The notes under the pieces were generated by a model. It searched no databases, had not been told where the DNA came from, and saw nothing but the letters and a program-made list of their open reading frames with translations. Both the position numbers and the translations under genes were made by a program. Positions 1-52,186 of a DNA stretch of 64,000 nt are shown one piece after another. Source of the stretch: Phyllobates terribilis (taxonomy: Eukaryota); assembly GCF_046119375.1 (NCBI RefSeq), contig NW_027362764.1, positions 293,074,001 to 293,138,000 on the forward strand. The letters are read 5' to 3'. The number at the start of each line of letters is the position of its first letter. The first letter of the stretch is position 1.

Positions 1-34
1 TCTATAGGTCTCCGTACAGACTAGCTTAGGACTT

Positions 35-1028: not shown

Positions 1029-2573
1029 GAGGTCTTGAATAGGGGTCTGACTTTTGTACCGACAACAGATTATAATTCTTTTGAGGTCATAAAGGACGTA
1101 AATTTGTTTGTGCGCAAGTTGAAGTGGCGCAAGCACTACATTAAGATTGATAAACAGGCATGCGCGGAATTGGGGGTTCGTGAAGAACTCCTACCTGACA
1201 TTAGAACCCTTTTTCACCTCGGTGATGTTGATCCTAACCTTGAGGGTAATGGTCCATTCACCAATCTGAAACTGAAGAGTACCAAAATGCCACCTCCACA
1301 GAGTGATTTGAGTCCCATTGATGTATTCCTGAACATGGTGACTAAAGACTTGAGGGACCTGGAAAATGATTCCAGACGTTTTAGACACAATTTCACTCGT
1401 TGTGAGATGCAGGCATTGAGGTCCCTAGAAAATGATGAACAGATCACCATAAAACCTTCAGATAAAGGGGGTAACGTGGTGATCATGGATACCAGTGAGT
1501 ACTATTTGATGTGCAGTGTAATACTAAATGCTAAGGAGTGTTATAGCACATTAAAGGCGGACCCCACGAGGAGATTCTCTCAAGAATTAGAGGAATTGGC
1601 AAATGAGGCTATGAGGGATGGGATCTTAAATAAACAGGAGAGAGATTTTATCTGTCCAACCCATCCAGTTATGTCCACCTTCTATAGTCTTCCAAAGGTA
1701 CATAAGGGCCTGAACCCACTGAAGGGACGACCCATAATATCGGGAATAAACAATCTAACCCAAAATCTGGGAATATATTTGGAGAAGGTACTTAAACCCT
1801 TTGTCTTAAGCTTGAACTCATTTATCGGTGACACCAATGACCTGCTTCGCAAACTAGAAGGTATGACAGTTGATAAAGACGTGACTCTAGCCAGCATCGA
1901 TGTCGAGTCACTATACTCCTCAATACCCCATGATAGGGGTCTGGAGGCGATACGCTTTTTCCTTATGGGGAGAGGCAAACAATTTGAGCGACACAATCAC
2001 TTCGTGATGAAGGCCCTTCAGTTCTGCTTGACAAAAAATGTGTTCCTCTTCGGTGGGAAGTACTTCCACCAACTCAGGGGTACTGCGATGGGGAGCCCTT
2101 GTGCCCCATCGTATGCCAATTTGTACCTGGGTTGGTGGGAGGAAACCGTGGTGTTTGGAGACATCCCCATTGTAGGTGGTGAAAATATTTTGCTATGGGT
2201 TCGATATATTGACGACGTCCTAGTTCTGTGGAAAGGGGATAAAACATCCTTTGGTAACCTCGTGGAAAGGCTTAATCACAATGACCTTAACCTGCATTTC
2301 ACTTTTGAGTTTGACCCCCATGAGTTGCCCTTCCTGGACATTTTGATACGGATAGGGAAGGATGGAGAGATAGAGACCAGTACATATAGGAAAACAACCG
2401 CCTCAAATTCTCTCCTCAGGTGGGAAAGCAACCATCCAGTCCCGCTTAAGAGGGGCATACCGAAGGGGCAATTCATGAGGGTCCGGAGGAACTGTTCGGA
2501 CGATGCCATTTTAGAGCCCAGGCCATCGATCTTTGTCAAAGATTCTATGAGAGGGGTTATCCAAAGAAGGTGA
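1026..2573 (+). CDS. PLE reverse transcriptase; 5'-truncated at the inversion junction and frameshifted near 2509-2512
   Basis: Motifs LNRGLTFVPT, KPSDKGGNVV, PKVHK...GRPIISG, DVESLY, GTAMGS, YIDD, LPFLDI, TYRK. Adding one T to the T4 run gives DAIFRAQAIDLCQRFYERGYP, in frame with the next ORF. Confidence 0.92.
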   Translation: MEVLNRGLTFVPTTDYNSFEVIKDVNLFVRKLKWRKHYIKIDKQACAELGVREELLPDIRTLFHLGDVDPNLEGNGPFTNLKLKSTKMPPPQSDLSPIDVFLNMVTKDLRDLENDSRRFRHNFTRCEMQALRSLENDEQITIKPSDKGGNVVIMDTSEYYLMCSVILNAKECYSTLKADPTRRFSQELEELANEAMRDGILNKQERDFICPTHPVMSTFYSLPKVHKGLNPLKGRPIISGINNLTQNLGIYLEKVLKPFVLSLNSFIGDTNDLLRKLEGMTVDKDVTLASIDVESLYSSIPHDRGLEAIRFFLMGRGKQFERHNHFVMKALQFCLTKNVFLFGGKYFHQLRGTAMGSPCAPSYANLYLGWWEETVVFGDIPIVGGENILLWVRYIDDVLVLWKGDKTSFGNLVERLNHNDLNLHFTFEFDPHELPFLDILIRIGKDGEIETSTYRKTTASNSLLRWESNHPVPLKRGIPKGQFMRVRRNCSDDAILEPRPSIFVKDSMRGVIQRR

Positions 2574-3316
2574 TAGCCGAGGCCTATGGGGGGACTCTGG
2601 CCAGGGACCGCTCCTCCTTGTTACACCCATCCCCAAATTTGGATAAGGACAACACTTTCTGCAGACTCATCACTACTGTCACCAATCAGTCATATACAGT
2701 CCGTAGGATACTACAAAAACATTGGCCGATTTTACTAATGGACGAGGATATTGGTGACGTGGTCGATTCAAGACCTATGATTACCTATAAAAAGGGTAGA
2801 TCCCTTAGGGACAGATTGGTCCACAGTCACTATATGGGCCATATGGGGAACAAAAGGTTGAAAAGTTCCATAATCGGCTTTTTTAGATGCAGTGGATGCG
2901 TATCATGTAAAGTTATCACGCAAGGGAAAGACTTCATAAGTAATGTCACTGGAAAAACATTTGTTGTCAAACATTTCATTAACTGTAGATCCAAGGGAAT
3001 TATCTACATGGCTAAATGTGTCTGCGGAATGGAATATGTGGGGAAAACAAGGAGAGAATTGAGAAGAAGAGTAGGGGAGCACCAAAGGGATATTGTCCTG
3101 AAAAGAGATACCCCCCTGGCGAAACATGTGAACAACGTACACCCGAACAGTAGGGATATAATACGTTTCATGGGAATTGACAAAGTTACGGCCCCACCAA
3201 GAGGGGGCGACTGGGACAAACTGATCCTGCAAAGAGAGACGAAGTGGATCTTTAGACTGCGGACAATGGCTCCCTACGGCCTTAATGAGCAGCTGTCCTA
3301 CAGGCCATTCCTATAA
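2570..3316 (+). CDS. C-terminal part of the PLE protein: Cys-rich linker plus GIY-YIG endonuclease
   Basis: CSGCVSC linker, GIIYMAKCVCGMEYVGKT, RRVGEH, LQRETKWI, PYGLN. Confidence 0.92.
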   Translation: MIAEAYGGTLARDRSSLLHPSPNLDKDNTFCRLITTVTNQSYTVRRILQKHWPILLMDEDIGDVVDSRPMITYKKGRSLRDRLVHSHYMGHMGNKRLKSSIIGFFRCSGCVSCKVITQGKDFISNVTGKTFVVKHFINCRSKGIIYMAKCVCGMEYVGKTRRELRRRVGEHQRDIVLKRDTPLAKHVNNVHPNSRDIIRFMGIDKVTAPPRGGDWDKLILQRETKWIFRLRTMAPYGLNEQLSYRPFL

Positions 3317-3938
3317 TGTAGGGTGAATTAGGGAGAGGAGTGTAGGGACAGCCGTCGAGGAGTGGGGGCGCCACTTGCGCAGGTTCATAGGGTGCCAACC
3401 TCCACTGTCAGGTAGGGATATTACTCTAGCTGCTTAATAGGGCTTTTATAGGTCCCTTTGCCCCCCACATGAATCTCTCTAGCTCTCCATTCTTGTGAGG
3501 CGCGGTCCCTGCCCATTTTCCCTTATGCTCCCTCGCATTTCTTCATACCCCCCTTCCTTTCATATTTTTGTTTTTGTCACATATCCATATTTTCATTTTC
3601 ACCTTTACATTTTTATCATCATAATTCTTTATTTGGGTCTCAAGTGCGCTCTAGGGGCCGGGCCATAGCTTCACTGTGCGGTTCTGGACCTATGAAGTAT
3701 TTTCAGCTCTTTTACCACTGGGGCAGAATGGACGCGGTTATATATACCGCGGTACATATGGTATGTGCCTGGATGAGTGTCAGCTACTATATGCTCTGGA
3801 CACCTGCCCCGGCTTGGGGTATTTATGGATGGGAGGTTTCCATGGTGCCATCCAACGTAGGATGTCAATTGGCGATCCTGCGTCCCCCCTGGCCGTCGCT
3901 CCGTTGTGTGCGATTTCATCATGTCTATGACGCGCACA

Positions 3939-4052
3939 CCGGAAGTGACGCTTGCGTGTCACGGCCGGCATCTGCGTTCCACATACCGGATGTCAGGTGA
4001 CCGGAACCGGAAGTGACACGATTATGAACAGAGCGCGACCAGGATTTAAAAG
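3939..4052 (+). promoter_or_regulatory. Putative Pol II promoter in the pLTR
   Basis: ETS-type sites CCGGAAGT (3939, 4007) and CCGGATGT (3986), and TATA-like ATTTAAAAG (4044), about 90 bp upstream of the hammerhead. Motif-based only. Confidence 0.5.
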
Positions 4053-4140
4053 AGGATCTATTAGAACGTTAAGTAGCGCTGTCTGTTGAATGAGCTGCGT
4101 GATTTTGGGCAGCGTGCATACCGCATGTCCTCTTCCCTTT

Positions 4141-4179
4141 TCCCCTGATGAATAGCTAAGGCTAAGAAACGCGTCGGGA
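4141..4179 (+). ncRNA. Minimal type I hammerhead ribozyme
   Basis: TCCC-CTGATGA-aTAGCtaagGCTAa-GAAAC-GC-GTC-GGGA: intact core, stem I TCCC/GGGA, stem II TAGC/GCTA, palindromic ACGCGT stem III. Predicted cut after C4175. Confidence 0.87.
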
Positions 4180-4890
4180 GCGGCATCTAGGGAGCGGTAT
4201 TTGGCTGGTGACCTCATGAGTTTCGGTTCACCTCCATTATATGGAGCCCCCTCTGAAGTCTGAGAGCAGGAACAGATATCAAAATTGGTGAGGATGTTCC
4301 ATTTCTATACATAACAAAGTTAAATAGTCACCACTGGTAGGGCGAGTGTTTTCATGTTCCCATATCTCAGGGCGAGTGTTTTCATGTTCTCACATTTTGG
4401 GGTACAATAAGTTGATATAGTGTACCGTGGGCTCCACTATTTCTTATTGCCATTTTTTCCTTGGTTTGTGTTAGAGATACAATATGCTTATATGACATAT
4501 ATTTAGATCTCTGGAAGCAACAATATATGGAAGTTCTTTTGGCTATTCTATATCACAGACAGTCAAACTGTGTGTTTTTAGGTCCTTGCATTTTGCACAT
4601 ATTTTATCTAATGGTAATAAACGTTAAGTTTTAAGTTCTTATAGTACTACACCTGCTTGTATTTATATTTACTTTTGTGTAGTTATTTCTACAATCCCCG
4701 TTGCTGCATATTGATTTAGCTTAGGACTTTAGCAGGTCTGATCGCAGGATCAGGTCCCCTGTTACATCGTAGGGATTAAGCTGAATTCTATCGTAGGGAC
4801 AGATCTCCTCTCTTTCCTTAGCTCTGGTAGCAGAACATAACAGTAAGTCCAGCCAGCAAATTCTCTAAGGAAAGATTTTTCTGTTCCATC

Positions 4891-16489: not shown

Positions 16490-16968
16490 TCCCCGCCCAC
16501 TAGGGTCATCCCGCCCTCTGGCCGGACCCCCCTTCTCCGCCACTTAAAGATCACTACTTACTGGAGGCTACCAGAGGCTTCCCAGGTCTCGTCGGCCGGC
16601 CGCATCCTCCTTCTTCCGGGTCACATGACTGCATACGTCACCACGAAATTGACAGGTGCATAAGTCATGTGACACAAGTTGTGTCACATGACTTACGCAT
16701 GCGTCACTTGCGTGGTGACGTATGCAGTCATGTGACTCGGAAGGAGAACGCGGACGGCGAGACCTGGGAAACCTCCGGTAAGTAGCAATTTAGCTTTATA
16801 CCTGTCTGCCCTGCACACTCTCACCATCCATGCCTTCCGATGATGCATGAAACATGCATTATGTGAAGGCACGGATATATCCGACAGATATCGGGATTAT
16901 CCGTATCCGTACAGCCCGTTATCCGCTCGGATAACGGGTCTGGACGGATCTATCCACTTATCCCTAGT
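16490..16968. mobile_element. MITE-like fragment with an internal palindrome, truncating the Ginger transposase 3' end
   Basis: Hairpin centred on GACACAAGTTGTGTC (~16670-16685); ends CTTATCCCTAG. The left boundary is approximate. Confidence 0.5.
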
Positions 16969-17759
16969 CATAATTACAGAATTACATAGTTTTGAAGTTG
17001 CGTTATTCATGTATTTGCGTTAATTTGACATTTTTGAGAAGTATTTTCCTACATAAATGTTTCGTATTTGAATTCAGAATTACATAGTTTTGAAGTTGCG
17101 TTATTCTTGTATTTGCGGTAATTTGTCATTTTTGAGAAGTATTTTCCTACATAAATGTTTTCTATTTGCATTTTCCTATTTGCATTCAGAATTACATAGT
17201 TTTGAAGTTGTGTTATTCTTGTATTTGCGGTAATTTGTCATTTTTGAGAAGTATTTTCCTACATAAATGTGTTCTATTTGCATTTTCCTATTTGCATTTG
17301 TTCATTTGCATTTGCATTTTGAAGAATAAAAATATTTCTAACGATTAAGGCCTTCATCAGAGTGGGAAATTGCGTTTAGTTAACTTTTACCACCATCATC
17401 TGCTGGTAAGAGTCAGAATTCTGTGACTCAAAGTTACTTTTACCAACACATGCTGGTAGTTACTTTTACCAACACATGCTGGTAAATGTAAACATTTACC
17501 AATTCGCCCAGGTAAAAGTCCAAAATCGTTCGTTTATATGGAATACATCTGACTTTTACCAACGCTGTTGAGAAATGTTAAGATTTACCAAGACTTCACC
17601 GGTAAAAGTCCAATTTTACTTTTCATTTTGAGCTTTTACCGACTGCCTCGGTAAATGTCCAGATTGACCGGTAAATCCTAGGTTTTACCGGCCTTCTGAC
17701 TTTTACAGTAACAATTACATTAATATTAATTGTATAACTTAATATTGAGCAGACATCCC

Positions 17760-18925
17760 CCTATATACAGCTTGAGCCCCCCACACAGCCTCTCTATATA
17801 CAGCATGAGCCCCACACAGCCCCCCTATGTCCAGCATGAGCCCCACACAACCCTCCCGTGTCCAGCATGAGGCCCACAAAGCCTCTCCGTGTCCAGCATG
17901 AGCCCCACAAAGCCTCTCCATGTCCAGCATGAGCCCCACACAGCCCCCCCATGTCCAGCATGAGCCCCACACAGCCCACATGTCCAGCAGGAGCCCCACA
18001 CAGCCCCCCTCCATTTCCAGCATGAGCCCCACAGAGCCCCCCATGTCCAGCATAAGCCCCACACAGCCCCCCCATGTCCAGCATGAGCCACACACATCCC
18101 CCCCATGTCCAGCATGAGCCCCACACAGCCCCCCATGACCATCATGAGCCCCACACAGCCCCCCATGTCCAGAATGAGCCCCACAAAGCCCCCCCCCATG
18201 TCCAGGATGAGCCCCACACAGCCACCCTATGTACAGCATGAGCCCCACACAGCCCTCCAAGTCCAGCATGAGCCTCACACAGCCCCCCATGTCCAGCAAG
18301 AGCCCCACACAGCCCCCCCGTGATCAGCATGAGCCCCACACAGCCCTCCCGTGTCCAGCATGAGCCCCACACAGCCACCCATGTCCAGCATGAGCCCCAC
18401 ACAGCCCTCCCGTGTCCAGCATGAGCACCACCCACCACCCCATGTCCATTATGAGAGCCCGAGAGCCTCCCCAGTGTCCAGCAAGAGAGCCCTCCCCAGT
18501 GTCCGGCATGACAGCCCTCCCCAGTGTCCAGCATGACTGCCCTCCTCAGTGTCCAGCATGACAGCCCTCCCCAGTGTCCAGCATGACAGCCCTCCCCAGT
18601 GTCCAGCATGACAGCCCTCCAGTGTCCAGCATTAAACCCCCAGTGTCCAACATGAGATCTCCCCCTGTGTCCAGAATGAGAGCTCCCCCTGTGTCCAGCA
18701 TGAGAGCTCCCCTGTGTCCAGCATGACAGCACTCCCTGTGTCCAGCATGAGAATCCCCCTATGTACAGCATGAGAGCCCCCATGTGTCCAGCATGAGAGT
18801 CCCCCTCTGTGTTCAGCATGAGAGCCCCCCTGTGTCCAGCATGACAGGCCTCCCTGTGTCCAGCATGAGAGCCCCCGTGTCCAGCATTAAAGCCCCCCCT
18901 GTGTCCAGCATTAAAGCCCCCCCGT
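17760..18925. repeat. C-rich minisatellite (TGTCCAGCATGAGCCCCACACAGCCCCCCCA-type, ~22-31 bp units), copy 1
   Basis: Dozens of degenerate units whose consensus drifts along the array; accounts for the many low-complexity ORFs here. Confidence 0.95.
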
Positions 18926-18927
18926 GT

Positions 18928-20945
18928 CCGTATCCGTATCCGTACAGCCCGTTATCCGCTCGGATAACGGGTCTGGACGGATCTATCCGCTTATCCCTAG
19001 TCATAATTACAGAATTACATAGTTTTGAAGTTGCGTTATTCATGTATTTGCGTTAATTTGACATTTTTGAGAAGTATTTTCCTACATAAATGTTTCGTAT
19101 TTGAATTCAGAATTACATAGTTTTGAAGTTGCGTTATTCTTGTATTTGCGGTAATTTGTCATTTTTGAGAAGTATTTTCCTACATAAATGTGTTCTATTT
19201 GCATTTTCCTATTTGTATTTGTTCATTTGCATTTGCATTTTGAAGAATAAAAATATTTCTAACGATTAAGGCCTTCATCAGAGGCGGAAATTGCGTTTAG
19301 TTAACTTTTACCACCATCATCTGCTGGTAAGAGTCAGAATTCTGTGACTCAAAGTTACTTTTACCAACACATGCTGGTAGTTACTTTTACCAACACATGC
19401 TGGTAAATGTAAACATTTACCAATTCGCCCAGGTAAAAGTCCAAAATCGTTCGTTTATATGGAATACATCTGACTTTTACCAACGCTGTTGAGAAATGTT
19501 AAGATTTACCAAGACTTCACCGGTAAAAGTCCAATTTTACTTTTCATTTTGAGCTTTTACCGATTGCCTCGGTAAATGTCCAGATTGACCGGTAAATCCT
19601 AGGTTTTACCGGCCTTCTGACTTTTACAGTAACAATTACATTAATATTAAATGTATAACTTAATATTGAGCAGACATCCCCCTATATACAGCTTGAGCCC
19701 CCCACACAGCCTCTCTATACACAGCATGAGCCCCACACAGCCCCCCTATGTCCAGCATGAGCCCCACACAACCCTCCCGTGTCCAGCATGAGGCCCACAA
19801 AGCCTCTCCGTGTCCAGCATGAGCCCCACAAAGCCTCTCCATGTCCAGCATGAGCCCCACACAGCCCCCCCATGTCCAGCATGAGCCCCACACAGCCCAC
19901 ATGTCCAGCAGGAGCCCCACACAGCCCCCCTCCATTTCCAGCATGAGTCCCACAGAGCCCCCCATGTCCAGCATAAGCCCCACACAGCCCCCCCATGTCC
20001 AGCATGAGCCACACACATCCCCCCCATGTCCAGCATGAGCCCCACACAGCCCCCCATGACCATCATGAGCCCCACGCAGCCCCCCATGTCCAGAATGAGC
20101 CCCACAAAGCCCCCCCATGTCCAGGATGAGCCCCACACAGTCACCCTATGTACAGCATGAGCCCCACACAGCCCTCCAAGTCCAGCATGAGCCTCACACA
20201 GCCCCCCATGTCCAGCAAGAGCCCCACACAGCCCCCCCGTGATCAGCATGAGCCCCACACAGCCCTCCCGTGTCCAGCATGAGCCCCACACAGCCACCCA
20301 TGTCCAGCATGAGCCCCACACAGCCCTCCCGTGTCCAGCATGAGCACCACCCACCCCCCCATGTCCATTATGAGAGCCCGAGAGCCTCCCCAGTGTCCAG
20401 CAAGAGAGCCCTCCCCAGTGTCCGGCATGACAGCCCTCCCCAGTATCCAGCATGACTGCCCTCCTCAGTGTCCAGCATGACAGCCCTCCCCAGTGTCCAG
20501 CATGACAGCCCTCCCCAGTGTCCAGCATGACAGCCCTCCAGTGTCCAGCATTAAACCCCCAGTGTCCAACATGAGATCTCCCCCTGTGTCCAGAATGAGA
20601 GCTCCCCCTGTGTCCAGCATGAGAGCTCCCCTGTGTCCAGCATGACAGCACTCCCTGTGTCCAGCATGAGAATCCCCCTATGTACAGCATGAGAGCCCCC
20701 ATGTGTCCAGCATGAGAGTCCCCCTCTGTGTTCAGCATGAGAGCCCCCCTGTGTCCAGCATGACAGGCCTCCCTGTGTCCAGCATGAGAGCCCCCCCTAT
20801 GTCCAGCATGAGAGCCCCCTGTGTCCAACATGAGAGAGCCCCCTGTGTCCAGCATGAGAGCCCACCTGTGTCCAGCATTAAAGCCCCCGTGTCCAGCATT
20901 AAAGCCCCCCCTGTGTCCAGCATTAAAGCCCCCCCTTGTCCAGCA
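18928..20945. repeat. Tandem duplicate of ~16898-18927 (Ginger right end plus minisatellite)
   Basis: The sequence restarts at TCCGTATCCGTACAGCCC. A second right TIR with ATTA ends at 19634-19638. It has one fewer ~112-bp subrepeat and several substitutions. Confidence 0.92.
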
Positions 20946-21020
20946 TGAGAGCCCCCCTGTGTCCAGCATGAGAGACCCCCCCTGTGTCCAGCATGAGAGC
21001 CCCCCCCACTGTGTCCAGCA
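19680..21020. repeat. C-rich minisatellite, copy 2
   Basis: Same unit succession as 17760-18925, extended by several units. Confidence 0.95.
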
Positions 21021-35671: not shown

Positions 35672-36228
35672 CATCCGTGACTGCAGGTTACTTCCATTAC
35701 CCTTAGTATGAAGCATGTTGCCTTCACTGTACACATTTTGTAATAAAAAATATTTAATGTTTTATGTCACTTTTTAATTGTATATATTCATTACAAATGT
35801 AGAGCTTTAGTCGATTACAAGATAACATTTTGGAGCTCTAGGCCTACAAAGCCTGGATCCCTTTGACCAAAATACTTACAATTGAAAGTCACGTTGTAAA
35901 ATAACATTACAGTTCTATTCACTACAGCATATCAACATTAAGATAATAAAGATTACAGGGGATAAATATAATAATCTGGCTAGGAGCATGTTGTCAGCCA
36001 AAACAAAATGATCCCTCTTAATGTCAAAAAATATAAGAATACACTCCGTCGAATACTAAGCCTACAATTGTCTGACAGAATGAAGTACTGTATTCAATTA
36101 ATGTAAGAAATTCATTTTTATTGGTGTACAAAACATAGAAATATACAGAAATAAGAAAAAATATTATGAGGGTTACTAAGGAGGAATCCAAGAAAATCCC
36201 CCAGTTGCACCAAAAAGCAATGGGGAAG

Positions 36229-37286
36229 TGTAGTGCCGGCGTCCCTGCCCTCTGCTAGGCAGGGACGCTGTTCCCCTCACCGCTCTGCTCCGTGCCCGGC
36301 GTCCCTCTCCCGCTCTGCTGGCAGCGCGCGCTCCTTCCCGGCCACTGTGCTTAGGGCGCGCGCGCGCGCCCTCCCTCCCTCTTAAAGGGGCCGCGCGCGC
36401 CGTCCTAAGGAGTCCCCGGCCAATGGCCGGAGGACTTTACCATATATAAGGCACCTCCTCCAAAATGGAGGTGCCCGAGCAATGTTGTTGCACCGTTCTA
36501 CTCTGCTTCAGCCCTCAGGTCCCGTTGCCAGTTACCTGCCAGATTCCTGCCAGCTTGCTGTCCTAATCCTGCCTGATTTCCTGTTACCTGCCTGCCTGCC
36601 TGAGGTCCGACGGTCTGCCTTACAACTCCGGTCAGTCTGTCTATGGACCAGCTTGCCCGCTCACCTGGGAGCGCTTCTCCGCTACCTGCCTGCTTGCCTG
36701 CCCGGAGGCTCCGCTGTCACGTGCTGTGACCACCAGCTATTCCAGACTCTTGCCCGCTCACCTGGGAGCGCTTCTCCGCTACCTGCCTGCTTGCCTGCCC
36801 GGGGGTTCCGCTGTCACGTGCTGGGACCACCAGCTATTCCAGAGACTCTTGCTCGCTCACCTGGGAGCGCTTCTCCGCTACCTGCCTGCTTGCCTACCTG
36901 GAGGCTCCGCCGTCACGTGCTGTGACCACCTGCTATTCCAGAGACTCTCGCTTGCTCACCTGGGAGCACACATCCTCCATCTGCCTTGCTAGCCTACCTG
37001 GAGGTTCAGCCATCACAGGTCGTACCTACCCTTTACCTAGAGACTGCCCCGGTCACTTGCCGTGACCTCCAGCCCGTTCTTCCAGAGACTGCCCCGGTCA
37101 CTTGCCGTGACCTCCAGCCCGTTCTTCCAGAGACTGCCCTGATCACTTGCCGTGACCTCCTGCCCGTACACCCAGAGACTGTCCCGGTCACCTGCTGTGA
37201 CTGCCTGCCTGGTCGCCACCCGCTCCCTTACAAGGACCGCTCCCTTGTATAGTAGCCCAGAGGTTCCGCCTCCCAGACCCGTTACA
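36229..37286 (+). repeat. 5' LTR of Gypsy-2
   Basis: TGTAGT...TTACA. TATATAA at 36443. Internal 97-99 bp and ~39 bp tandem units. Confidence 0.96.
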
Positions 37287-37299
37287 GTTTGCTCGGGCC

Positions 37300-38250
37300 A
37301 TGGAACCCGGTGGCACCCAAGCTCCCTCGCTCTCGGACCTGTGTCATGAACTGTCCCGTCAAAGGTCCCAACAGGAGTCCATCCTGGGTCACCTGCGGAA
37401 TGTCAATACTCGCCTGGACACTCTGACTGTTCCACCAACAACCTCCGCCAGTGCCATGTCTCGCAATCCGGCAGCTCCGCTGTCCAATAACACCATGATA
37501 TCCTACCCCGGACCTCGGCTTTCTGCACCTCCTCGCTTCGGAGGCGACTCAGCCCAGGCTCGGGGCTTCATAAATCAGTGCACCCTGCACTTTGAACTAA
37601 TGTCCCACCAGTTTAACTCCGACCGAGCCAAAATTGCATTCATCATGTCCCATCTCACCGGGGAGGCCCTGGCCTGGCTAAATCCTCTATGGGAGAGAGG
37701 AGACCCCCTGGTGTCCAACTTGCCTGCTTTTCTCACGGCTTTCCAGAAAGTCTTCGACGAACCCGGACGGAAGACCTCATCCGCATCATCGTTGCTACGC
37801 CTCCGTCAGGAAAGTCTCACCGTGGGCCAATATGCCATACGGTTCCGTACCCTTGCCTCGGAGCTGGCCTGGGATAACGACGCTCTGGTTTCCGTCTTCT
37901 GGGAGGGTCTGTCCGGCCGTATTAAAGATGAACTTGCCGGTCGGGACATTCCTACCACTCTCGATGACTTAATAACTCTTGCCACCCGGATTGACCTACG
38001 GTTCCAGGAGCGTGCCAGAGAGGTCACCCGTGAGAGGAGGTTACCACGTCTAGCTCCTACTTTTCAGAAACCCGTCACTCCTTCTGTCTCTAACCATGTA
38101 CACCCTCCTGAGCCTATGCAGGTCGACCAGACCAAGATGGTCAAGACCCGTCAGGACTTACGCCGTGCCGAGGGGACCTGCTTCTACTGTGGCAGTAAGG
38201 AGCACCGGATCCGTGCCTGCCCGGAGAGGTCGGGAAACGCCTGTGTCTAG
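37300..38250 (+). CDS. gag: Gag (PEG10/RTL-like capsid plus CCHC knuckle)
   Basis: PPRFGG, FINQC, WLNPLWE, FWEGLS, EPMQVD, CFYCGSKEHRIRAC. Confidence 0.95.
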   Translation: MEPGGTQAPSLSDLCHELSRQRSQQESILGHLRNVNTRLDTLTVPPTTSASAMSRNPAAPLSNNTMISYPGPRLSAPPRFGGDSAQARGFINQCTLHFELMSHQFNSDRAKIAFIMSHLTGEALAWLNPLWERGDPLVSNLPAFLTAFQKVFDEPGRKTSSASSLLRLRQESLTVGQYAIRFRTLASELAWDNDALVSVFWEGLSGRIKDELAGRDIPTTLDDLITLATRIDLRFQERAREVTRERRLPRLAPTFQKPVTPSVSNHVHPPEPMQVDQTKMVKTRQDLRRAEGTCFYCGSKEHRIRACPERSGNACV

Positions 38251-38277
38251 GTTCGCTCAGAGAGGTCCACCTAGACA
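38232..38277 (+). promoter_or_regulatory. -1 programmed ribosomal frameshift signal
   Basis: G GGA AAC in the gag frame (38232-38238), 5-nt spacer, 8-bp stem TGTCTAGG/CCTAGACA. The -1 frame is open into the protease. Confidence 0.88.
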
Positions 38278-41200
38278 AGAATAAATCCTCTCCATCCCTG
38301 CTGTTGTCAGTTTCAATCGTCTACGGGGAGAACCGTTATTTCGAACTAGCCCAACTGGACTCTGGAGCAGCCGGGAATCTTATTTCACAGTCCCTGGTAG
38401 AGAAATACCGCATCCCCACCAAACCTCTGGCTGTACCCTTGTCTGTTGCTGCCGTGGATGGGGGGCTCTTACCACGCCCCATCCAACTCATCACCGAATC
38501 CATTACTCTGCAGGTGGGAATGCTGCATTCTGAAAGTATCTCCTTCCATGTTCTGCCTGGACTCTCTCACGCCCTCTTGCTAGGCCTACCTTGGCTCCAG
38601 AAACATGCACCCGTTCTTGACTGGCAGACCGGAGAAGTCCTTCGCTGGGGACAGGGCTGCCATAAGACCTGTCTGGTTCCCGTTCATCCCGTCCGTCCTT
38701 CTCCTACCCCAGCTAATCTACCTGGACTTCCGATTCCTTATTGGTCTTATGCTGATATCTTTAATAAAAAGGAGGCAGAGACACTACCCCCTCATAGACC
38801 ATACGACTGCCCTATCGACCTGTTACCTGGTACTTCTCCTCCCCGTGGGCGTATTTATCCATTATCCGCTGCTGAGACCCGGTCGATGTCCGAATATATT
38901 GAGGAGAGTCTGGCCAGGGGATTCATCCGGAACCTACCTCCCCGGCGGGAGCAGGCTTCTTTTTCGTCAAAAAGAAGGACGGCTCTCTCCGTCCCTGTAT
39001 AGACTATAGAGGCCTTAACCAGATCACGGTGAAGAATAAGTACCCCCTTCCGCTCATTCCGGAGTTATTTGATCGTCTGAGGGGGGCTAGAATCTTCACC
39101 AAACTGGACCTCCGTGGGGCGTACAACCTGGTTCGTATCCGTCAGGGGGATGAATGGAAGACGGCATTCAACACCCGGGACGGCCACTATTAATATCTGG
39201 TAATGCCCTTTGGCCTCTGTAACGCTCCTGCCGTCTTTCAAGAGTTGGTCAATGACATCTTCCGGGACCTTCTCTACTCCTGCGTAGTGGTGTACCTGGA
39301 CGACATCTTGGTCTTCTCTCCGGATCTCCAGACTCACCGGAGGGATGTTCGTCAGGTCCTGCTCAGGCTCAGGCAGAACCATCTCTACGCTAAATGTGAG
39401 AAGTGCCTCTTTGAGCAGACCTCGCTTCCGTTTCTGGGCTACATTATCTCTCAGACCGGCCTACAAATGGATCCTGAGAAACTGTCTGCCATCGAGAAAT
39501 GGCCCCGACCAGAGGGGTTGAAGGCTATTCAACGGTTCCTGGGCTTCGCCAACTATTACCGCCTCTTCATCCCGCACTTCTCTTCCCGGACTGCCCCAAT
39601 TTCCGCGCTCACCCGTAAGGGTACTAATCCCAAAGAGTGGCCGCCCGAAGCAGAGGAGGCCTTTCTTTCCCTAAAACAGGCCTTCTCTTCCGCCCCGGTG
39701 CTGCATCGCCCGGACGGCAACAAGCAGTTCTTCCTGGAAGTTGACGCCTCCTCCTCTGGAGCCGGAGCGGTACTTACTCAAAAATCATCTTCCGGGAGAA
39801 TGGTAACTTGTGGCTTCTTCTCCAAACTCTTCTCCTCTTCTGAGCGCAACTATTCCATAGGAGACCGAGAGTTATTGGCCATCAAGCTGGCGTTGGAGGA
39901 GTGGCGTTACCTACTCGAGGGGTCTCTTCATCCGGTAATAATTTACACTGACCACAAGAACTTGGCTTACCTCCAGCATGCCCAGAGACTTAACCCGCGC
40001 CAAGCCCGGTGGTCCTTGTTTTTTGCTCGCTTTGATTTTGTTCTTCATTTTCGCCCGGCTGACAAAAACGTCAAAGCAGACGCCTTGTCCCGATCATTTC
40101 TGGTGTCCGATCTCGAGGAAGAACCTAAACATATCATCGATCCCGCCAGAGTAATGCAGGTGGCTCCCGTGAGTCTAAATCGTCTCCCTCCCGGTAAGAC
40201 GTTTGTTTCAGTACCTGATCGGGAGAAGATCCTACACTGGGGCCATTCGTCTAAACTAGCTGGCCACGTCGGTCAGAAAAAGACCCTCCAGCTTATTGCC
40301 CGGCACTGTTGGTGGCCTACCCTGCACAAGGACATAATAGACTTTGTTTCTGCCTGTGTGTCCTGCGCCCGCAACAAAGTCCCGAGACATCTGCCAGCCG
40401 GACGCCTCCTTCCGCTTCCTGTACCTGCTGCCCCCTGGCAGCATATAGCAATGGACTTTATAACTGATCTCCCCGTCTCTGCCGGTTGTACGGTCATTTG
40501 GGTGGTCGCTGACCGCTTTTCCAAGATGGCTCACTTTATTCCCCTGCCAGGCCTTCCGTCTGCACCCGAGCTGGCTAAAGACTTTATCCGCCACATCTTC
40601 CGTCTTCATGGCTTGCCCCTCCACATCGTGTCGGATCGTGGGGTACAGTTCACCTCACGTTTCTGGAGAGCCACTTGTAAACTACTAGACGTCACCCTGG
40701 ACTTCTCTTCCGCTTACCACCCACAGTCCAATGGTCAAGTGGAGCGGATCAATCAGAACCTGACCAGTTACCTCCGGCACTTCGTTAATGCCCACCATTC
40801 TGACTGGGTGGATCTCCTACCATGGGCCGAGTTCTCTTATAATAATCACGAGAGCGAATCCTCCTCCAAATCCCCGTTTTTTGTAGTCTTTGGTCAGCAT
40901 CCTCGGATTCCTTTTCCTGTCTCCACCTCTGTGGACAACCCGGCTGCGGAATCTCTCGTTAGCAAATTTTCCTCCATATGGGAGAGTACCCGGTCCGCAC
41001 TCCTTCTGTCATCCGAGCGTATGAAAAGACACGCTGACAAAAAACGCCTGGATCCTCCACAATTTCGTCCAGGAGATAAAGTCTGGCTCTCATCTAAATA
41101 TGTTCGACTCAAGATACCGTCTTACAAGTTAGGGCCTCGGTTCATCGGTCCTCTGGAGGTCATCAGTCAGATCAACCCGGTGGCCTATAAATTGAAACTC

Positions 41201-41656
41201 CCGGCCAACTTACGGATCCCTAACTCCTTCCATGTATCTCTCCTCAAACCCGTGGTGCTTAACTCTTTTTCCAAGTCTACAGGTACGCTTCCTGCTCCGG
41301 TTTCTGCTGAGGACGAGTTTGAGGTAGAGAACATTCTTGCCACCAAAAGGGTAAGAGGAAAGACCTTTTTTCTGGTAGATTGGAAGGGGTTTGGTCCTGA
41401 GGAGAGAACGTGGGAGCCCCGGGAGAACATCCATGCCCCTCTCATCCTAGCTAAATTTCTATCTGGCCTAAAAAAGGGGGGGCCTAAAGTGGGGGGTACT
41501 GTAGTGCCGGCGTCCCTGCCCTCTGCTAGGCAGGGACGCTGTTCCCCTCACCACTCTGCTCCGTGCCCGGCGTCCCTCTCCCGCTCTGCTGGCAGCGCGC
41601 GCTCCTTCCCGGCCACTGTGCTTAGGGCGCGTGCGCGCGCCCTCCCTCCCTCTTAA
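38238..41656 (+). pseudogene. pol: pol (protease, RT, RNase H, integrase, chromodomain) with two lesions
   Basis: LDSGA, YLDD, VSDRGVQF, NGQVER, FLVDWKGFGPEERTW. A 1-bp deletion near 38932 and TAA at 39191-39193 replacing E in GHYEYLVMP. Confidence 0.93.
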
Positions 41657-42557
41657 AGGGGCCGCGCGCGCCGTCCTAAGGAGTCCCCGGCCAATGGCCG
41701 GAGGACTTTACCATATATAAGGCACCTCCTCCAAAATGGAGGTGCCCGAGCAATGTTGTTGCACCGTTCTACTCTGCTTCAGCCCTCAGGTCCCGTTGCC
41801 AGTTACCTGCCAGATTCCTGCCAGCTTGCTGTCCTAATCCTGCCTGATTTCCTGTTACCTGCCTGCCTGCCTGAGGTCCGACGGTCTGCCTTACAACTCC
41901 GGTCAGTCTGTCTATGGACCAGCTTGCCCGCTCACCTGGGAGCGCTTCTCCGCTACCTGCCTGCTTGCCTGCCCGGAGGCTCCGCTGTCACGTGCTGTGA
42001 CCACCAGCTATTCCAGACTCTTGCCCGCTCACCTGGGAGCGCTTCTACGCTACCTGCCTGCTTGCCTGCCCGGGGGTTCCGCTGTCACGTGCTGGGACCA
42101 CCAGCTATTCCAGAGACTCTTGCCCGCTCACCTGGGAGCGCTTCTCCGCTACCTGCCTGCTTGCCTACCTGGAGGCTCCGCCGTCACGTGCTGTGACCAC
42201 CTGCTATTCCAGAGACTCTCGCTTGCTCACCTGGGAGCACACATCCTCCATCTGCCTTGCTAGCCTACCTGGAGGTTCAGCCATCACAGGTCGTACCTAC
42301 CCTTTACCTAGAGACTGCCCCGGTCACTTGCCGTGACCTCCAGCCCGTTCTTCCAGAGACTGCCCCGGTCACTTGCCGTGACCTCCAGCCCGTTCTTCCA
42401 GAGACTGCCCTGATCACTTGCCGTGACCTCCTGCCCGTACACCCAGAGACTGTCCCGGTCACCTGCTGTGACTGCCTGCCTGGTCGCCACCCGCTCCCTT
42501 ACAAGGACCGCTCCCTTGTATAGTAGCCCAGAGGTTCCGCCTCCCAGACCCGTTACA
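41500..42557 (+). repeat. 3' LTR of Gypsy-2
   Basis: Near-identical to 36229-37286. Confidence 0.96.
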
Positions 42558-43579
42558 GGAAGTATATCGCAATAATCAGAAAATAGGAGGAATGATCCAG
42601 CGTATCAGGCTATGAACTTGAATAAAACATAGCTTTTATTGAGCCATTAAAAAATGCTGCTACCACCATAATAAGTCTTAGTGCACACAAGGATCACAGC
42701 TGTCTTGACCTACTCGTTTCAACGTGCAGTCTTAATCATGGTCCATGATAAAGACTGCACGTCCAAACGCGTAGGTCAAGATAGCTGTGATCCTTGTGTG
42801 CACTAAGACTTATTATGGTAATAGCAGCATTTTTTAATGGCTGTAACATCCCTGGCGGCGTGCTGGCATGGCTTACCACCTCCCACCATGCAAGACCGCC
42901 ATCTTACCTATCAGTCCAGGCTGCACACTTTGCTCCAGTACCTGCTGTGTGCATGTCTCTTGTCTGATTGCTTAGGGCGGCGGCGCGGTTACTGCCTGAT
43001 TCTTATAGTTACTGTGTGCGCACTCCTAATGCGTCCCCAGCCTATTGCTGTGAGTCACTGGATACTTAAACTCCCTCCACCCAGTAGGAGGTGCCTGGGG
43101 AACACTTTCTTTCAGTGTGTTCTGTGCAACTGAGTTGCCAGGTCCTATCCTGTATCTTGTCTGTTTCCGCCACCCTGGGGGCTGAATACCCAGGCCTGTT
43201 ACCTGTATCTGTAACTTCTAGTCTGCTCCGCCACCATGGGGGCTGTATACCCAGGCCCGTTATCTGTATCTTTGACTTCTAGTCTGTTCTGCCACCCTGG
43301 GGGCTGTATACCCAGGCCTGTTACCTGTATCTGTGACTTCTAGTCTGTTTCCGCCACCCTGGGGGCTGAGTTCCCAGGCTCGTTCCTATATTTTGTTTCT
43401 GGTTCAGTTCCTGTCTGAACTGTGTCCTAGCCTGTTACCTGTTTTGTCTCTATGTCCGAACCTTCCCTTTTCCTGCAGTGTCTGAACCTGCACCTAACTC
43501 CTACTCGTTGTCTCTGTACTTTTGTTTGTGAGTTTTGCGTCCACTTGCTATTTCATTGCAAGTACCTTGTGTGTAGCTG

Positions 43580-44100
43580 GTTCTGTTTGTCCACCGCACC
43601 TGCGGTTTCGCTTTGCTCTGCATGTCCACCGCATCTGCGGTTTCGCTCTGCTCTGCTTGTCCACCGCACCTGCGGTTTCGCTCTGCTCTGCTTGTCCACC
43701 GCACCTGCGGTTTCGCTCTGCTCTGCTTGTCCACCCCACCTGCGGTTTTGCTCCGCTCTGCTTGTCCACCGCACCTGCGGTTTCGCTCCGCTCTGCTTGT
43801 CCACCGCACCTGCGGTTTCGCTCTGCTCTGCTTGTCCACCGCACCTGCGGTTTCGCTCTGCTCTGCTTGTCCACCGCACCTGCGGTTTCACTCTGCTCTG
43901 CTTGTCCATCGCACCTGCGGTTTTGATTTGCTCTGCTTGCCCACCGCACCTGCGGTTTTGCTCTGCTCTGCTTGCCCACAGCACCTGTGGTTTCGCTCTG
44001 CACTGCTTGTCCACCGCACCTACGGTTTCGCTCTGCTCTGCTCCGCTTGTCCTCCGCGCCTGTGGTTCTGCTCTGCTAGTCCACCGCACCCGCGGCTCTG
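43580..44100. repeat. 35-bp minisatellite in the Gypsy-3 5' LTR
   Basis: Unit CCACCGCACCTGCGGTTTCGCTCTGCTCTGCTTGT; the equivalent array is at ~47165-47650 in the 3' LTR. Confidence 0.93.
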
Positions 44101-44538
44101 TACCTGTATCCCAGTCTGTACTGGTCCCTATCCAGCCTGTGTTCCTACCTGCCAGTATCTGCCAGTGTGCATACTAGCCGTGCCTGCCAGCACCCGTCTG
44201 TCTGCATACCAGCTGTGCCTGCCAGTACCCACCTGTCTGCATGCCAGCCGTGCCTGCCAGTACCCACCTGTCTGCATACCAGCTGTGCCTGCCCATTCCT
44301 GCATTCCCCGGTGTGGGTCAACAGCTGTGACCGAGGTCTGACCTGTAGTAGCACCTGGTCCCTCTGCTCGGTTCCTCCCTGGTTCACGGAGTCGACTGAG
44401 ACGCCGTGCGACCTTGGTCGGACCGAGTTGATACTTAGTCACGCCCCTCCAGGCACTCCTCGGTTCATGGTCCAGTGGGATCACTAACCACGCTCACGCC
44501 AGTCAGTCTGGGCGTGTGCGTAACAGTTTGCTCAGGCC

Positions 44539-46614
44539 ATGGTCCCCTTTGAGCCCCACGGCCCTTTGCTCTCGGAGACATTTGAATCCTTGTCTGGCGA
44601 ATACGTGCACCAAGGAAAAAAATTTTCTCAAGCTGAAGTCCAGGCGATTTACGCACCAGCCCAAATGGAACTATCAGCACTCGTTCCTTCGGATCCACCA
44701 CGGTACTATGGGGATCCAAAACAAAGTCGTGCATTTGTGGAGCAATGCATGCTGCATTACAAATTCTATGCTCACTATTTTCCCACCGATCGGGTTAAAG
44801 TAGCATTTCTGATGTCCTACTTAGCGGGTGATGCCTTGAATTGGATCACCCCCCTATGGGAAGCATGGGATCCTATCGTCTCTGACCTGCAGGCCTTCCT
44901 GGTGGCCTTTCTAATGGTCTTCGATGACCCTAACCCTGAAGCTTCTGCTAAAGCTTCCCTTCCCAATGTCGTGGAGCAGTTCCGATGGGTGATGCGTGTA
45001 GGTAGCCCACCAGTTCCCCAGCCAGAAGAGGCTGCTGCCAACACAGCATCCACACAGGATGACAATGCTCCACAGAATACTTCCCTTCCCAGCCTCAAGA
45101 GGCAGTCCAGACGTGCAAGGCGTAGAGGTAAACCGTCACGTCAGGTTCTGTCCTCCCAAAGACCTCCTGTTCCCCAGCCTGTAGAGGCAGCTATCCGCAC
45201 AGAATCCATGAAGGTTGACCATGTTCGTCAGGCAAAGCAGAGGCCGGAACTCAGTCACAAAATCGGATTGCGGTCCCGCTGCAGTTGTTTGGACCACCCT
45301 GACGGTCTTTGTCCTGTGAAGGTTGAAGAATCCCAAGACATTAGGCCTGTAGGAGAGGCTGCCCTTGGCGTTAGTGTTTCCTCCCCACAGATGACCATGA
45401 CTGTCTCCATGGCAAGTGAAGGCCTCGGATTAACCGGAAGTTTCGGGCTTAAAGCCTTGAAGAGTCGGTGTCTGATTCCCGTCCGAGAACTCCAGAATCC
45501 GGTTTGGGCATTGTCAGCGGAAGGACGAGCCCTACTCAGAAACAGTCAGAATATGTCTGTACAAATTAAGCTCCAGATTGGAGCATTACACATGAAGAAG
45601 TTCACATTCCAGGTGCTGTCTGGTTTACCCAAAGGTCGTCCAGAGCCGAGAGATCTAGTGCCCGCTCAGGTCTGGAGATCCTGCATGGTGATTCCTGGGG
45701 GACTGCTGAGGTACAAGGGTTGTCCAGTCCCCATATCTTCAGGACAGTCAGCAGTGTCTTCTTCTTCTTCTTCACCAGATCAGCTAGTCGCTGACTCGCT
45801 GGGCGCTGAAGTCTCCGAAGGAAGGGAAGCGGAGGCAATGTCCCCACACAATCTCGACGATTGTACCAATGATCTGACTTCAGGTACTGCCCCGCCTCGC
45901 AGACGTGTCATCTCTGAAACCAGACTGAAGTTGGTCCCAAAGCAAGGATACTCCATCCCTAATAAATCTGGCAATAAGTCCATCAAGGCGGTGGCTTCCT
46001 CCAAGTCTCTGCACCCCTCCAACCAGGTGGAGGACCTCCAGTTGTCTCCTGAATCCTCCGGGGTGCTACCTGATAACAAAGGGAGAGAGACTTTTCTACA
46101 CCCTGTACCTAATACTTCACCCACTTCTTCCAGTAAGCTTGGCAAAGTGTACGTCAAGGCGGTGGTTCCCCCCGAGTCTCTGCACCCCTCCAACCTGGTG
46201 GAGGATCTCCAGTTGTCCCGTGAATCTTCTGGGGTGCTACCCAATATTAATAAATGGAGAGAGACTTTCCTGTGTCCTGTTCCTGGTACTTCACCCACTT
46301 CATCTGTTGCTGAGGATGGCTCGATGGGAGAAAGCATCCTAGTCACCAAGATGATGAGACCGGATTCGTTCCCTCTAGTGGACAGAAGAGGTAATCTTCT
46401 TGAAGAGAAGGATCGGCCTCCAAATTCTCTGCAGAAAATCCTTGCAGGCTTGAAGAAGAGCAGGCGTAAGGGGGGGGTACTGGAACATCCCTGGAGGCGT
46501 GCTGGCATGGCTTACCACCTCCCACCATGCAAGACCGCCATCTTACCTATCAGTCCAGGCTGCACACTTTGCTCCAGTACCTGCTGTGTGCATGTCTCAT
46601 GTCTGATTGCTTAG
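44539..46614 (+). CDS. 691-aa Gag fused in frame to eroded protease, RT N-tip, duplicated integrase C-terminus and chromodomain relic
   Basis: PPRYYGDP..SRAFVEQC, FLMSYLAGDALNWITPLWE are gag-like. IKLQIGALH..FTFQVLSGL is protease-like without DSG. PHNLDDCTNDLTSGTAPPRRRV and SILVTK...FPLVD align with Gypsy-2 pol. Confidence 0.8.
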   Translation: MVPFEPHGPLLSETFESLSGEYVHQGKKFSQAEVQAIYAPAQMELSALVPSDPPRYYGDPKQSRAFVEQCMLHYKFYAHYFPTDRVKVAFLMSYLAGDALNWITPLWEAWDPIVSDLQAFLVAFLMVFDDPNPEASAKASLPNVVEQFRWVMRVGSPPVPQPEEAAANTASTQDDNAPQNTSLPSLKRQSRRARRRGKPSRQVLSSQRPPVPQPVEAAIRTESMKVDHVRQAKQRPELSHKIGLRSRCSCLDHPDGLCPVKVEESQDIRPVGEAALGVSVSSPQMTMTVSMASEGLGLTGSFGLKALKSRCLIPVRELQNPVWALSAEGRALLRNSQNMSVQIKLQIGALHMKKFTFQVLSGLPKGRPEPRDLVPAQVWRSCMVIPGGLLRYKGCPVPISSGQSAVSSSSSSPDQLVADSLGAEVSEGREAEAMSPHNLDDCTNDLTSGTAPPRRRVISETRLKLVPKQGYSIPNKSGNKSIKAVASSKSLHPSNQVEDLQLSPESSGVLPDNKGRETFLHPVPNTSPTSSSKLGKVYVKAVVPPESLHPSNLVEDLQLSRESSGVLPNINKWRETFLCPVPGTSPTSSVAEDGSMGESILVTKMMRPDSFPLVDRRGNLLEEKDRPPNSLQKILAGLKKSRRKGGVLEHPWRRAGMAYHLPPCKTAILPISPGCTLCSSTCCVHVSCLIA

Positions 46615-47164
46615 GGCGGCGGCGCGGTTACTGCCTGATTCTTATAGTTACTGTGTGCGCACTCCTAATGCGTCCCCAGCCTATTGCTGTGAGTCACTGG
46701 ATACTTAAACCCCCTCCACCCAGTAGGAGGTGCCTGAGCAACACTTTCTTTCAGTGTGTTCTGTGCAACTGAGTTGCCAGGTCCTATCCTGTATCTTGTC
46801 TGTTTCCGCCACCCTGGGGGCTGAATACCCAGGCCTGTTACCTGTATCTGTGACTTCTAGTCTGCTCCGCCACCCTGGGGGCTGTATACCCAGGCCTGTT
46901 ACCTGTATCTGTGACTTCTAGTCTGTTTCCGCCACCCTGGGGGCTGAGTTCCCAGGCTCGTTCCTGTATCTTGTTCCTGGTTCAGTTCCTGTTTGAACTG
47001 TGTCCTAGCCTGTTACCTGTTTTGTCTCTATGTCCGAACCTTCCCTTTTCCTGCAGTGTCTGAACCTGCACCTAACTCCTACTCGTTGTCTCTGTACTTC
47101 TGTTTGTGAGTTTTGTGTCCACTCGCTACTTCATTGCAAGTACCTTGTTTGTATCTGGTTCTGC

Positions 47165-47650
47165 TTGTCCACCGCACCTGCGGTTTCGCTCTGCTCTGCT
47201 TGTCCACCGCACCTGTGGTTTCACTCTGCTCGTCCACCGCACCTGCGGTTTCTCTCTGCTCTGCTTGTCTACCGCACCTGCGGTTTCGCTCTGCTTGTTC
47301 ACTGCACCTGCGGTTTCACTCTGCTCTGCTTGTCCACCGCACCTGCAGTTTCGCTCTGCTCTGCTTGTTCACCGCACCTGCGGTTTGGCTCTGCTCTGCT
47401 TGTCCACCTCACCTGCGGTTTCGCTCTGCTCTGCTTGTCCACCACACCTGCAGTTTTGCTCTGCTTGTCCACCGCACCTGCGGTTTCGCTCCGCTCTGCT
47501 TGTCCACTGCACCTGCGGTTTCGCTCTGCTCTGCTTGCCCACCGCACCTGCAGTTTCGCTCTGCTCTTCTTGTCCACCGCACCTACGGTTTCGCTCTGTT
47601 CTGCTCCACTTGTCCTCCGCGCCTGCGGTTCTGCTCTGCTAGTCCACCGC
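47165..47650. repeat. 35-bp minisatellite in the Gypsy-3 3' LTR
   Basis: Same unit with different copy number and unit variants. Confidence 0.93.
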
Positions 47651-48504
47651 ACCCGAGGCTCTGTACCTGTATCCCAGTCTGTACTGGTCCCTATCCAGCC
47701 TGCGTTCCTACCTGCCAGTATCTGCCAGTCTGCATACTAGCCGTGCCTGCCAGTAGCCGCTTGCCTGCATACCAGCCGTGCTTGCCAGTACCCACCTGTC
47801 TGCATACCAGCTGTGCCTGCCCATTCCTGCATTCTCCAGTGTGGGTCAACAGCTGTCACCGGGGTCTGACCTGTAGTAGCACCTGGTCCCTCTGCTCGGT
47901 TCCTCCCTGGTTCACGGAGTCGACTGAGCCGCCGTGCGACCTTGGTCGGACCGAGTTGATACTTAGTCACGCCCCTCCAGGCACTCCTCGGTTCATGGTC
48001 CAGTGGAATCACTAACCACGCTCACGCCAGTCAGTCCGGGCGTGTGCGTAACAATGGCTCAATAAAAGGTATGTTTTATTCAAGTTTATAGCCTGATACG
48101 GTGGATCATTCCTCCTATTTTCTGATTCATGAACCAGCCTGCTCTCGCTGGATCCGAGCGAGGCTGAGACTGCACACCCCAATAGTGAGCGGACTTTACT
48201 TACCTTTTTTTCTTATATCGCAATAATGGTACATACTGTATATAGCAAAGTCTCATAGGATATGTAGTCTCATAGTAAACAATTAAATAAATAAATATAA
48301 GTGCTAAATGCAATGTGAACCATAATGACATTGACTGGAAAAAATACATCAAAGTATATCTGTGACATAATAAATGCAAGACCTTATATAAATGGGAAGC
48401 TGGCCCATAGAAATGATGAATAGTAGCTAATGGTAAATAGATAAATATGGGACAGAGGGCATAACAACAATTCACAGTGATGGAAAAGTGAAAAAAGTGA
48501 TAAA

Positions 48505-51240: not shown

Positions 51241-52186
51241 GGCTAAGTGCCCACGATGCAGAAATGCTGCAGATTTTTCCTCATCTCCCTGGCAGGAAAA
51301 ACGCATGCAGATTTCACATGCGTCTTTCCTGCCAGGTAGAAGCGTTTGTCAAGCGTTTTTGCATGCATTTCTGCATGCAGGTTATCAAGCGCTTTTCCAA
51401 GCGATTTTAGCATCACTTGGAAAAGTGCTTGACAACTTGGTCACACTATATAAATCCATGCAACCGGCATGGATTTATATAGGGTGACCAAGTTAATAGT
51501 TAAAAAAAAGAATAAAAATGGTAAAAAATAAAAAATCAACATTATACTTACCTTCCGATGGCCCCCGGTCTTTTCTCCGCTGCGTCCGGTCTCTTGTACG
51601 GATCGCGATGGTCTAAAAGGATAAAAGGACCTGCGGTGATGTCATTTAGTCATGTGTCAGGTCACGCGACCGCTGACGTCGGCGGTCGCGTGACCTGTCA
51701 CATGACTAAATGACATCACCGCAGGTCCTTTTAGACCATGGCGAGCCATACAAGAGACCGGACGCAGCGAAAAGACCGGGGGCCATCAGAAGGTAAGTAT
51801 AATGTTTATTTTTTATTTTAAATTCTTTTTTCAGCAGGTACTATGGTACCTGGGTCTGGAGGAGAGTCTCCTCTTCTCCAAACCCGGGTACCATCCGCAC
51901 ATTGAATCACTTAATATCCGCATGTTCACATGTAGTCATGCAGATATTAAGCGATTCAATGCAAGTCAATGGCGGCAATTACGCTGCGTGTCTGCAAAAT
52001 TAATGGACATGCTGCGGATTTTTCCGCAATGATAATCCGCAGTGGAAATTTCCGCAGCATGTGCACAGTACATGCGGATTATCATTGGGGACCATGGGGC
52101 ACGTATTACCAAGCGTTTTTTAAGCGTTTTCGCTGCGGAAATTCCACAGCAAAAACACTTAAAAAACGCATAGTAGGCACGCAGCC
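51241..52186. mobile_element. PIF/Harbinger-type MITE with nested palindromes
   Basis: TAA flanks on both sides, imperfect TIRs GGCT..GTGCC.AC.ATGC, and an internal ~265-bp palindrome 51540-51804. Confidence 0.7.

Follow-up and report, generated by a model that had tools for sequence, protein, structure and literature searches.

The window analyzed here is a stretch of 64,000 nucleotides from the genome of Phyllobates terribilis (NW_027362764.1, positions 293,074,001-293,138,000). It contained an ORF-less fold-back element, 448 bp in total once a nested LTR element was skipped, with the following order: 14-bp TSD, 168-bp arm, 1-nt centre, 168-bp inverted arm, 86-bp tail, and TSD (Table 1). 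The two TSD copies were identical (14/14 bp), the end of the left one overlapped the start of the left arm by 3 nt, and the arms differed at 10 positions (94% identity). The TSD, arm, and tail lengths and the overlap had been given in an earlier note on this DNA and were confirmed at 42563-48227. A chance origin of the fold-back is excluded because the arm recurs in the 10.5-Gb genome (463 first-look candidates, 40 scored, 83 matches). The element is a real stub of a Penelope-like element (PLE) with a known layout. Its stem was interrupted by a 5.2-kb insertion; the copy is old, broken, and without evident function, most likely inert and decaying. Family positions are numbered from the last base of the arm (-1), the tail being +1 to +91.

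The nested LTR element had LTRs of ~1.6 kb each, ~95.5% identical and containing internal tandem arrays of 35 bp and 61 bp; this identity is in line with an element younger than the fold-back arms. The sole match of its single ORF was DUF4939 (gag-like), no RT match was found in this ORF, and the element looks non-autonomous. A chromodomain Ty3/Gypsy element (36221-42557; LTRs 99% identical, 5-bp TSD) directly abutted the left TSD of the fold-back. Elsewhere in the window, short palindromes at 16610-16746 and 51514-51830, without similarity to the fold-back arm, are probably centres of MITE-like elements, and a 1.9-kb direct duplication at 17172-21005 contained minisatellites of 23, 25, and 31 bp.

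Table 1. The fold-back element, its parts, and two further elements of the window.
Feature	Position	Strand	Description
Left TSD	42563-42576		14 bp; final 3 nt double as arm start
Inverted pLTR arm	42574-42741	-	168 bp; family positions -1 to -168; putative cDNA from the inner RT start site
Minimal type I hammerhead	42706-42743	-	A3-U8 core intact; loop 3 altered at 42714; predicted cut after 42711
Fold-back centre	42742-42742		<=3 nt from the presumed pLTR transcription start (family position -171)
Sense pLTR arm, inner 99 bp	42743-42841	+	Contains second hammerhead, 42743-42778, core changes at 42750 and 42764
Nested LTR element	42842-48053	+	TG..CA ends; later insertion; own 5-bp TSD, 42837-42841 / 48054-48058
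Sense pLTR arm, outer 69 bp	48059-48127	+	Right arm = 42743-42841 plus 48059-48127, 168 bp
Tail	48128-48213	+	86 bp here, ~90 bp in the family
Right TSD	48214-48227		14 bp
Second PLE	22-4731	+	997-bp inverted arms, RT and GIY-YIG-type ORF pieces, C3-G8 hammerhead near 4142, 51-bp tail

The second PLE of the window, at 22-4731, is young: its inverted arms were 100% identical, its TSD was ~15 bp, and its ORF was broken by a frameshift near 2510. The fold-back follows the same plan without a coding core, as had been noted before, but its arm had no similarity to 22-4731 in a blastn search with word size 7. The proposed link of the arms to a PLE pLTR was recovered with a different family. Judged from sequence context, the fold-back arm is the pLTR of a Penelope-like family with RT and GIY-YIG domains found elsewhere in the genome. 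It adjoined tblastn matches to the RT/endonuclease pieces of the 22-4731 PLE in 9/16 long loci (22-54% identity), of which one (L034) had a single short match and many went back to a single insertion, duplicated as part of a larger repeated segment. The Pfam GIY-YIG match in the parent family was weak (E 0.005), and a protein search with the parent RT piece gave one match among 553 candidates. Locus L247 is a partial tandem consisting of a TSD, a short inverted arm, a tail running into the 5' UTR and ORF, a 3' pLTR, a tail, and a 14-bp TSD; this layout identifies arm plus tail as the pLTR region upstream of the ORF in the tandem. The features of EN+ PLEs were thus present, RT with a C-terminal GIY-YIG in the parent family, all seen copies of which were broken, and a hammerhead-bearing pLTR in partial tandem upstream of the ORF in L247; the stub itself has no ORF. 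From the resemblance of an N-terminal motif, the parent family may belong to the Neptune clade.

A near-full-length parental insertion was amplified dozens of times in a larger repeated segment (L031-L033, L038-L040, L042-L045, and many unplaced contigs); its tail sat on the short arm, in antisense orientation relative to the ORF. The tail of L247 contained, from +61, a splice-donor-like site, with a T tract at the end and then AG in the tandem copy; an intron bounded by these sites would measure only ~41 nt, which is small by vertebrate standards.

The hammerhead of the fold-back family has a 4-bp helix I, the core A3-U4-G5-A6-U7-U8-A9, one extra A, a 3-bp helix II, G12-A13-A14, and a palindromic loop 3. 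The marks of the minimal type I motif (conserved core, Watson-Crick 3-8 pair, paired helices I and II) were present in the family and in the - strand copy of the window, which kept the core with a non-palindromic loop 3. The + strand copy of the window did not show them: changes at core positions 8 (42750) and 12 (42764) removed the 3-8 pair and G12, the general base of the hammerhead. Both strings that the earlier note had read as variant minimal hammerheads at the centre were found, but only the one on the - strand has an intact core. The + strand changes were rare in sister arms (42750 in 1/39, 42764 in 2/44), and the variation within the family, mostly at CpG sites, resembles neutral decay. 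In a read-through hairpin RNA, each hammerhead would pair with its own antisense and would be unable to fold.

The core-only pattern had 181 matches genome-wide vs 0 in the reversed control. Among the 100 matches listed, many different helix II/loop II sequences occurred, in which both stem strands had changed; this covariation of helix II across families argues for a selected fold, and the matches point to a putative clade of PLE families with the A3-U8 variant. In an Rfam scan of the window with E up to 5, no hammerhead family matched, the C3-G8 motif near 4142 being missed too; only hairpin-type microRNA models matched, weakly.

Sister copies were collected with three exact patterns at or in the tail, without selection on a fold-back centre. 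Matches to the patterns numbered 41, 17, and 50; 30, 17, and 30 of these were fetched, giving 77 loci that corresponded to 58 distinct places and, after removal of 11 duplicates, to 47 loci. An inverted arm was present in 27/47 loci, and the tail was one-sided. The outer end of the inverted arm fell within -8 to +7 in 21/27 loci, and the fixed outer ends of the two arms were ~90 nt apart. TSDs of 9-16 bp, each different, were called in 19/27 loci with an inverted arm (script calls without a shuffled control); they are variable and not of a fixed short length, in agreement with the PLE origin suggested earlier.

The inverted arm was the longer one in 11/25 loci and the sense arm in 8/25, the two being within 10 nt of each other in 6/25; their lengths, which are blurred by deletions at palindrome centres after insertion, were uncorrelated (rho 0.16). 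Centre junctions differed at all loci inspected. The mean number of non-CpG variants shared between loci was 0.14 for left-left, 0.12 for right-right, and 0.15 for left-right comparisons. The two arms of one locus shared a mean of 1.08 such variants (13 loci), with one locus giving 6/14 and the window copy none. Because the centres differ, the arm lengths are independent, and there is no side-specific arm lineage, the hairpin is built anew at each insertion and not copied as a unit. The shared junction and side-specific arm lineages of a non-autonomous family copied as a unit were not found in these loci. The part of the earlier note that envisaged a self-standing class of hairpins, mobilised as hairpins, is not supported: each copy has its own centre, and either arm may be the longer. 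The role as a dsRNA source that the note suggested likewise found no support in the analyses made.

Ends were scored for 43 sense arms; 4/47 loci were left out, three of them starting inside the tail and one being complex. Among the sense arms reaching -169, 12/23 ended in -173 to -169 (0.21 expected from the background), and 5/10 inverted arms did so (0.13 expected). The range was picked after data inspection, and ends were assigned manually, bridging internal deletions; with unedited blast ends the sense count is 10 instead of 12. A second sample, anchored on the hammerhead in contigs 1-11, consisted of 31 rows: 12 ended in -173 to -167 (7 of these were absent from the first sample), 18 extended past the pile, and one was cut by another insertion. 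The pile of arm ends sits at the 5' edge of the hammerhead, and the stubs of this family centre there. Stubs of the 22-4731 family centre ~65 nt upstream of the ribozyme, where 8 arm ends in 7/28 loci were found at -594 to -582; two ORF-less fold-backs of this family (L154 and L242) were centred in the same range. In the wider 22-4731 group, the motif at the presumed start had 526 matches; among the first 100, 6 ended at the pile and 94 ran past it. Partial tandems of 4.55 kb, arranged as head-to-head arrays, also occurred in this group.

A TATA-like box is found in both families; it starts exactly 30 nt ahead of a pyrimidine-purine step located at the pile, and this spacing was constant in four subfamilies of the 22-4731 family while the spacer varied. 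The same distance from box to hammerhead was found in L258, L259, and L260, which have other A3-U8 hammerheads; their spacers differ and are unrelated in L258 and L260. Other A3-U8 hammerheads were examined at 20 fetched loci: the box was 2 nt closer in five loci of one further family, and in five loci an inverted remnant lay immediately upstream. The same hammerhead edge was the centre of three head-to-head pairs (L270-L272) that belong to other A3-U8 sequence types. We infer that the pile near -171 marks the transcription start of the pLTR promoter. A few junctions contained an untemplated G, possibly from cap copying, most of them ambiguous.

A splice acceptor at -170 was rejected as the cause of the pile, since the ends include the AG and there is no shared upstream exon; a spliced template was rejected as well, since no missing intron shows up when short arms are aligned with long ones. 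One copy started at -174 and was directly preceded by same-strand ORF sequence ending at -515 (L245:1301-1302); this junction reflects a deletion or, alternatively, a template jump following run-off.

Some arm ends also fell on the predicted ribozyme cut, in -138 to -133: 3/32 sense (0.43 expected) and 3/18 inverted arms (0.29 expected), two loci being in both counts. In L083 both arms ended at -137, and L165 of the 22-4731 family begins exactly at its own predicted cut. This small excess weakly suggests ends made by the ribozyme; stalling or microhomology deletion would be alternatives.

These results are probably best explained by a Penelope-like enzyme that used both nicks of a single staggered cut as primers and began reverse transcription at two fixed RNA sites, the cDNAs running off the RNA 5' end and being joined head to head to form the ORF-less stub. 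In such a process, the GIY-YIG domain would make two nicks ~14 bp apart, and the 3' end of each nick would prime reverse transcription, one at the tail end and the other at -1. The solo arm at L243, with a 13-bp TSD and no tail, indicates that this inner RT start site works alone. Priming on the 5' pLTR of the transcript would yield cDNAs of only ~260 and ~170 nt, both running off at the RNA 5' end near -171, and thus a stub; priming on the 3' pLTR would give long arms and ORF-bearing copies. Host repair would then join the cDNA ends, with microhomology or filler, and gap filling would yield the TSD. The presumed transcription start is where the ribozyme begins, which would explain why the two hammerheads meet at the centre.

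A twin-primed stub could also arise if reverse transcription stalled at -171 on RNA structure in a longer transcript, either on the upstream stem-loop or on helix I of the hammerhead, which starts at -170. The stem-loop is located at about -245 to -184 and has a 12-bp RNA stem (whole-fold z -1.9), but it stops 11 nt before reaching the pile, and near the stem end only 1/43 sense ends was found (L052, -186). Moreover, the pile of the second family lies away from its ribozyme, yet again 30 nt after a TATA-like box. Stalling at the stem-loop fits less well than a transcription start, and we regard stalling as unlikely. We give equally little weight to a self-renewing non-autonomous element, in which stubs would keep an internal promoter and outward transcription from the centre would template new stubs, the palindrome being remade in each round and its centre not inherited. 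An internal promoter is described for Drosophila Penelope (PMC2377424), both presumed RT start sites are present in the sense arm plus tail, and stubs are about as frequent as long copies in the family of the fold-back. However, none of the variants distinguished the 18 short copies from the 11 long ones (best P 0.037 in 23 tests), short and long copies were equally diverged (4.9% vs 5.0%), and the conserved TATA-like box lies outside the stub.

Still less probable is that the hairpin was transcribed and retrotransposed whole, or that one cDNA snapped back to copy itself. Such copying would account for the private variants shared by arms of the same locus (1.08 vs 0.15 between loci), a mean to which one locus contributed 6/14 and the window copy none, and self-priming is proposed for head-to-head junctions in PMC3846280. 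It is largely contradicted by the different junctions at the inspected loci, by left-left and right-right sharing no higher than left-right sharing, and by the loci with a longer inverted arm, which snap-back could not produce without later deletion. The short, non-coding, palindromic form of the fold-back and the many TIR elements in the window recall a MITE or foldback DNA transposon, to which we assign a negligible probability. That candidate is refuted by the tail on one side, the TSDs of variable length and sequence, and the contiguity of the arm with an RT plus GIY-YIG ORF: neither a short fixed TSD nor inverted repeats at both termini, common to a transposase element, were found, and the arm belongs to a PLE. 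The earlier proposal of an origin by PLE retrotransposition is thereby supported.

The layout of the fold-back and the proximity of minimal hammerheads on opposite strands are already published (PMC3846280, PMC8557442, and PMC4209133). EN+ insertions with an inverted pLTR, tail, and TSD are described for Pen2a of Adineta vaga (PMC3846280), and a general scheme is given in PMC8557442. Our fold-back shares with these insertions an inverted 5'-truncated copy beside a sense copy, a head-to-head junction, a one-sided tail, and a TSD of ~8-10 bp or more. It differs in lacking any ORF, in its longer tail (~90 nt vs 30-40), and in junctions concentrated at one position; the passages of the two papers on such junctions propose self-priming or endonuclease resolution, whereas two run-off cDNAs are proposed here.

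The PLE protein of a lizard (Poseidon of Anolis, PAc) cuts and extends both strands in vitro and starts at two internal RNA sites bounding the tail, according to PMC11167929. The same traits, with a hammerhead upstream of both RT start sites, are found or proposed for our family, which is a different PLE with start sites upstream of the ORF and not inside it as in PAc (PMC11167929). In that study, RNA-seq reads at the ribozyme cut were absent; here, a few genomic ends do coincide with the predicted cut. In Schistosoma, hammerhead motif pairs lie 100-700 bp apart on opposite strands (PMC4209133, main text). The motif of our family resembles the minimal metazoan PLE hammerheads described there in its type I core, the extra nucleotide before helix II, and the palindromic loop 3; the main text gives only C3-G8 and U3-A8 as the core pair vs A3-U8 here. 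Like animal non-LTR retrozymes, as outlined in bioRxiv 10.64898/2026.07.22.740005 and PMC7229834, the fold-back is non-coding, hammerhead-bearing, and PLE-linked. Those are head-to-tail tandem units, whereas our element is one head-to-head pair without sign of unit propagation, and no head-to-tail hammerhead array was found in the tail-anchored loci.

No description of a fold-back formed by run-off was found in the literature searched. PLE hammerhead variants that cleave as dimers were reportedly described by Lunse, Weinberg and Breaker, whose work is cited in PMC6765202. The A3-U8 core was not found in the literature searched either; it may be listed in that work or in the supplements of PMC4209133.

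The interest of the finding is moderate and lies in what the ends of the family reveal. Fold-back stubs may be pairs of cDNAs resembling strong-stop products, in which case the genome would map, for each PLE family, the two RT start sites, the point where transcription begins, and, with a weak signal, the ribozyme cut in vivo; the A3-U8 clade would carry its hammerhead at the very 5' end of the RNA, and stubs may rebuild themselves via an internal promoter. We advance this wider reading tentatively, as slightly short of an even chance. For annotation, such palindromes belong under PLE remnants, not MITEs, and the A3-U8 core is a natural test of the tolerance of the hammerhead core. Should each stub indeed consist of two run-off cDNAs, RNA 5' ends would be predictable within a few bases, a full-length copy could arise only through a template jump or through priming on the 3' pLTR, and the in vitro findings on priming at two sites and on two strands would extend to a living genome.
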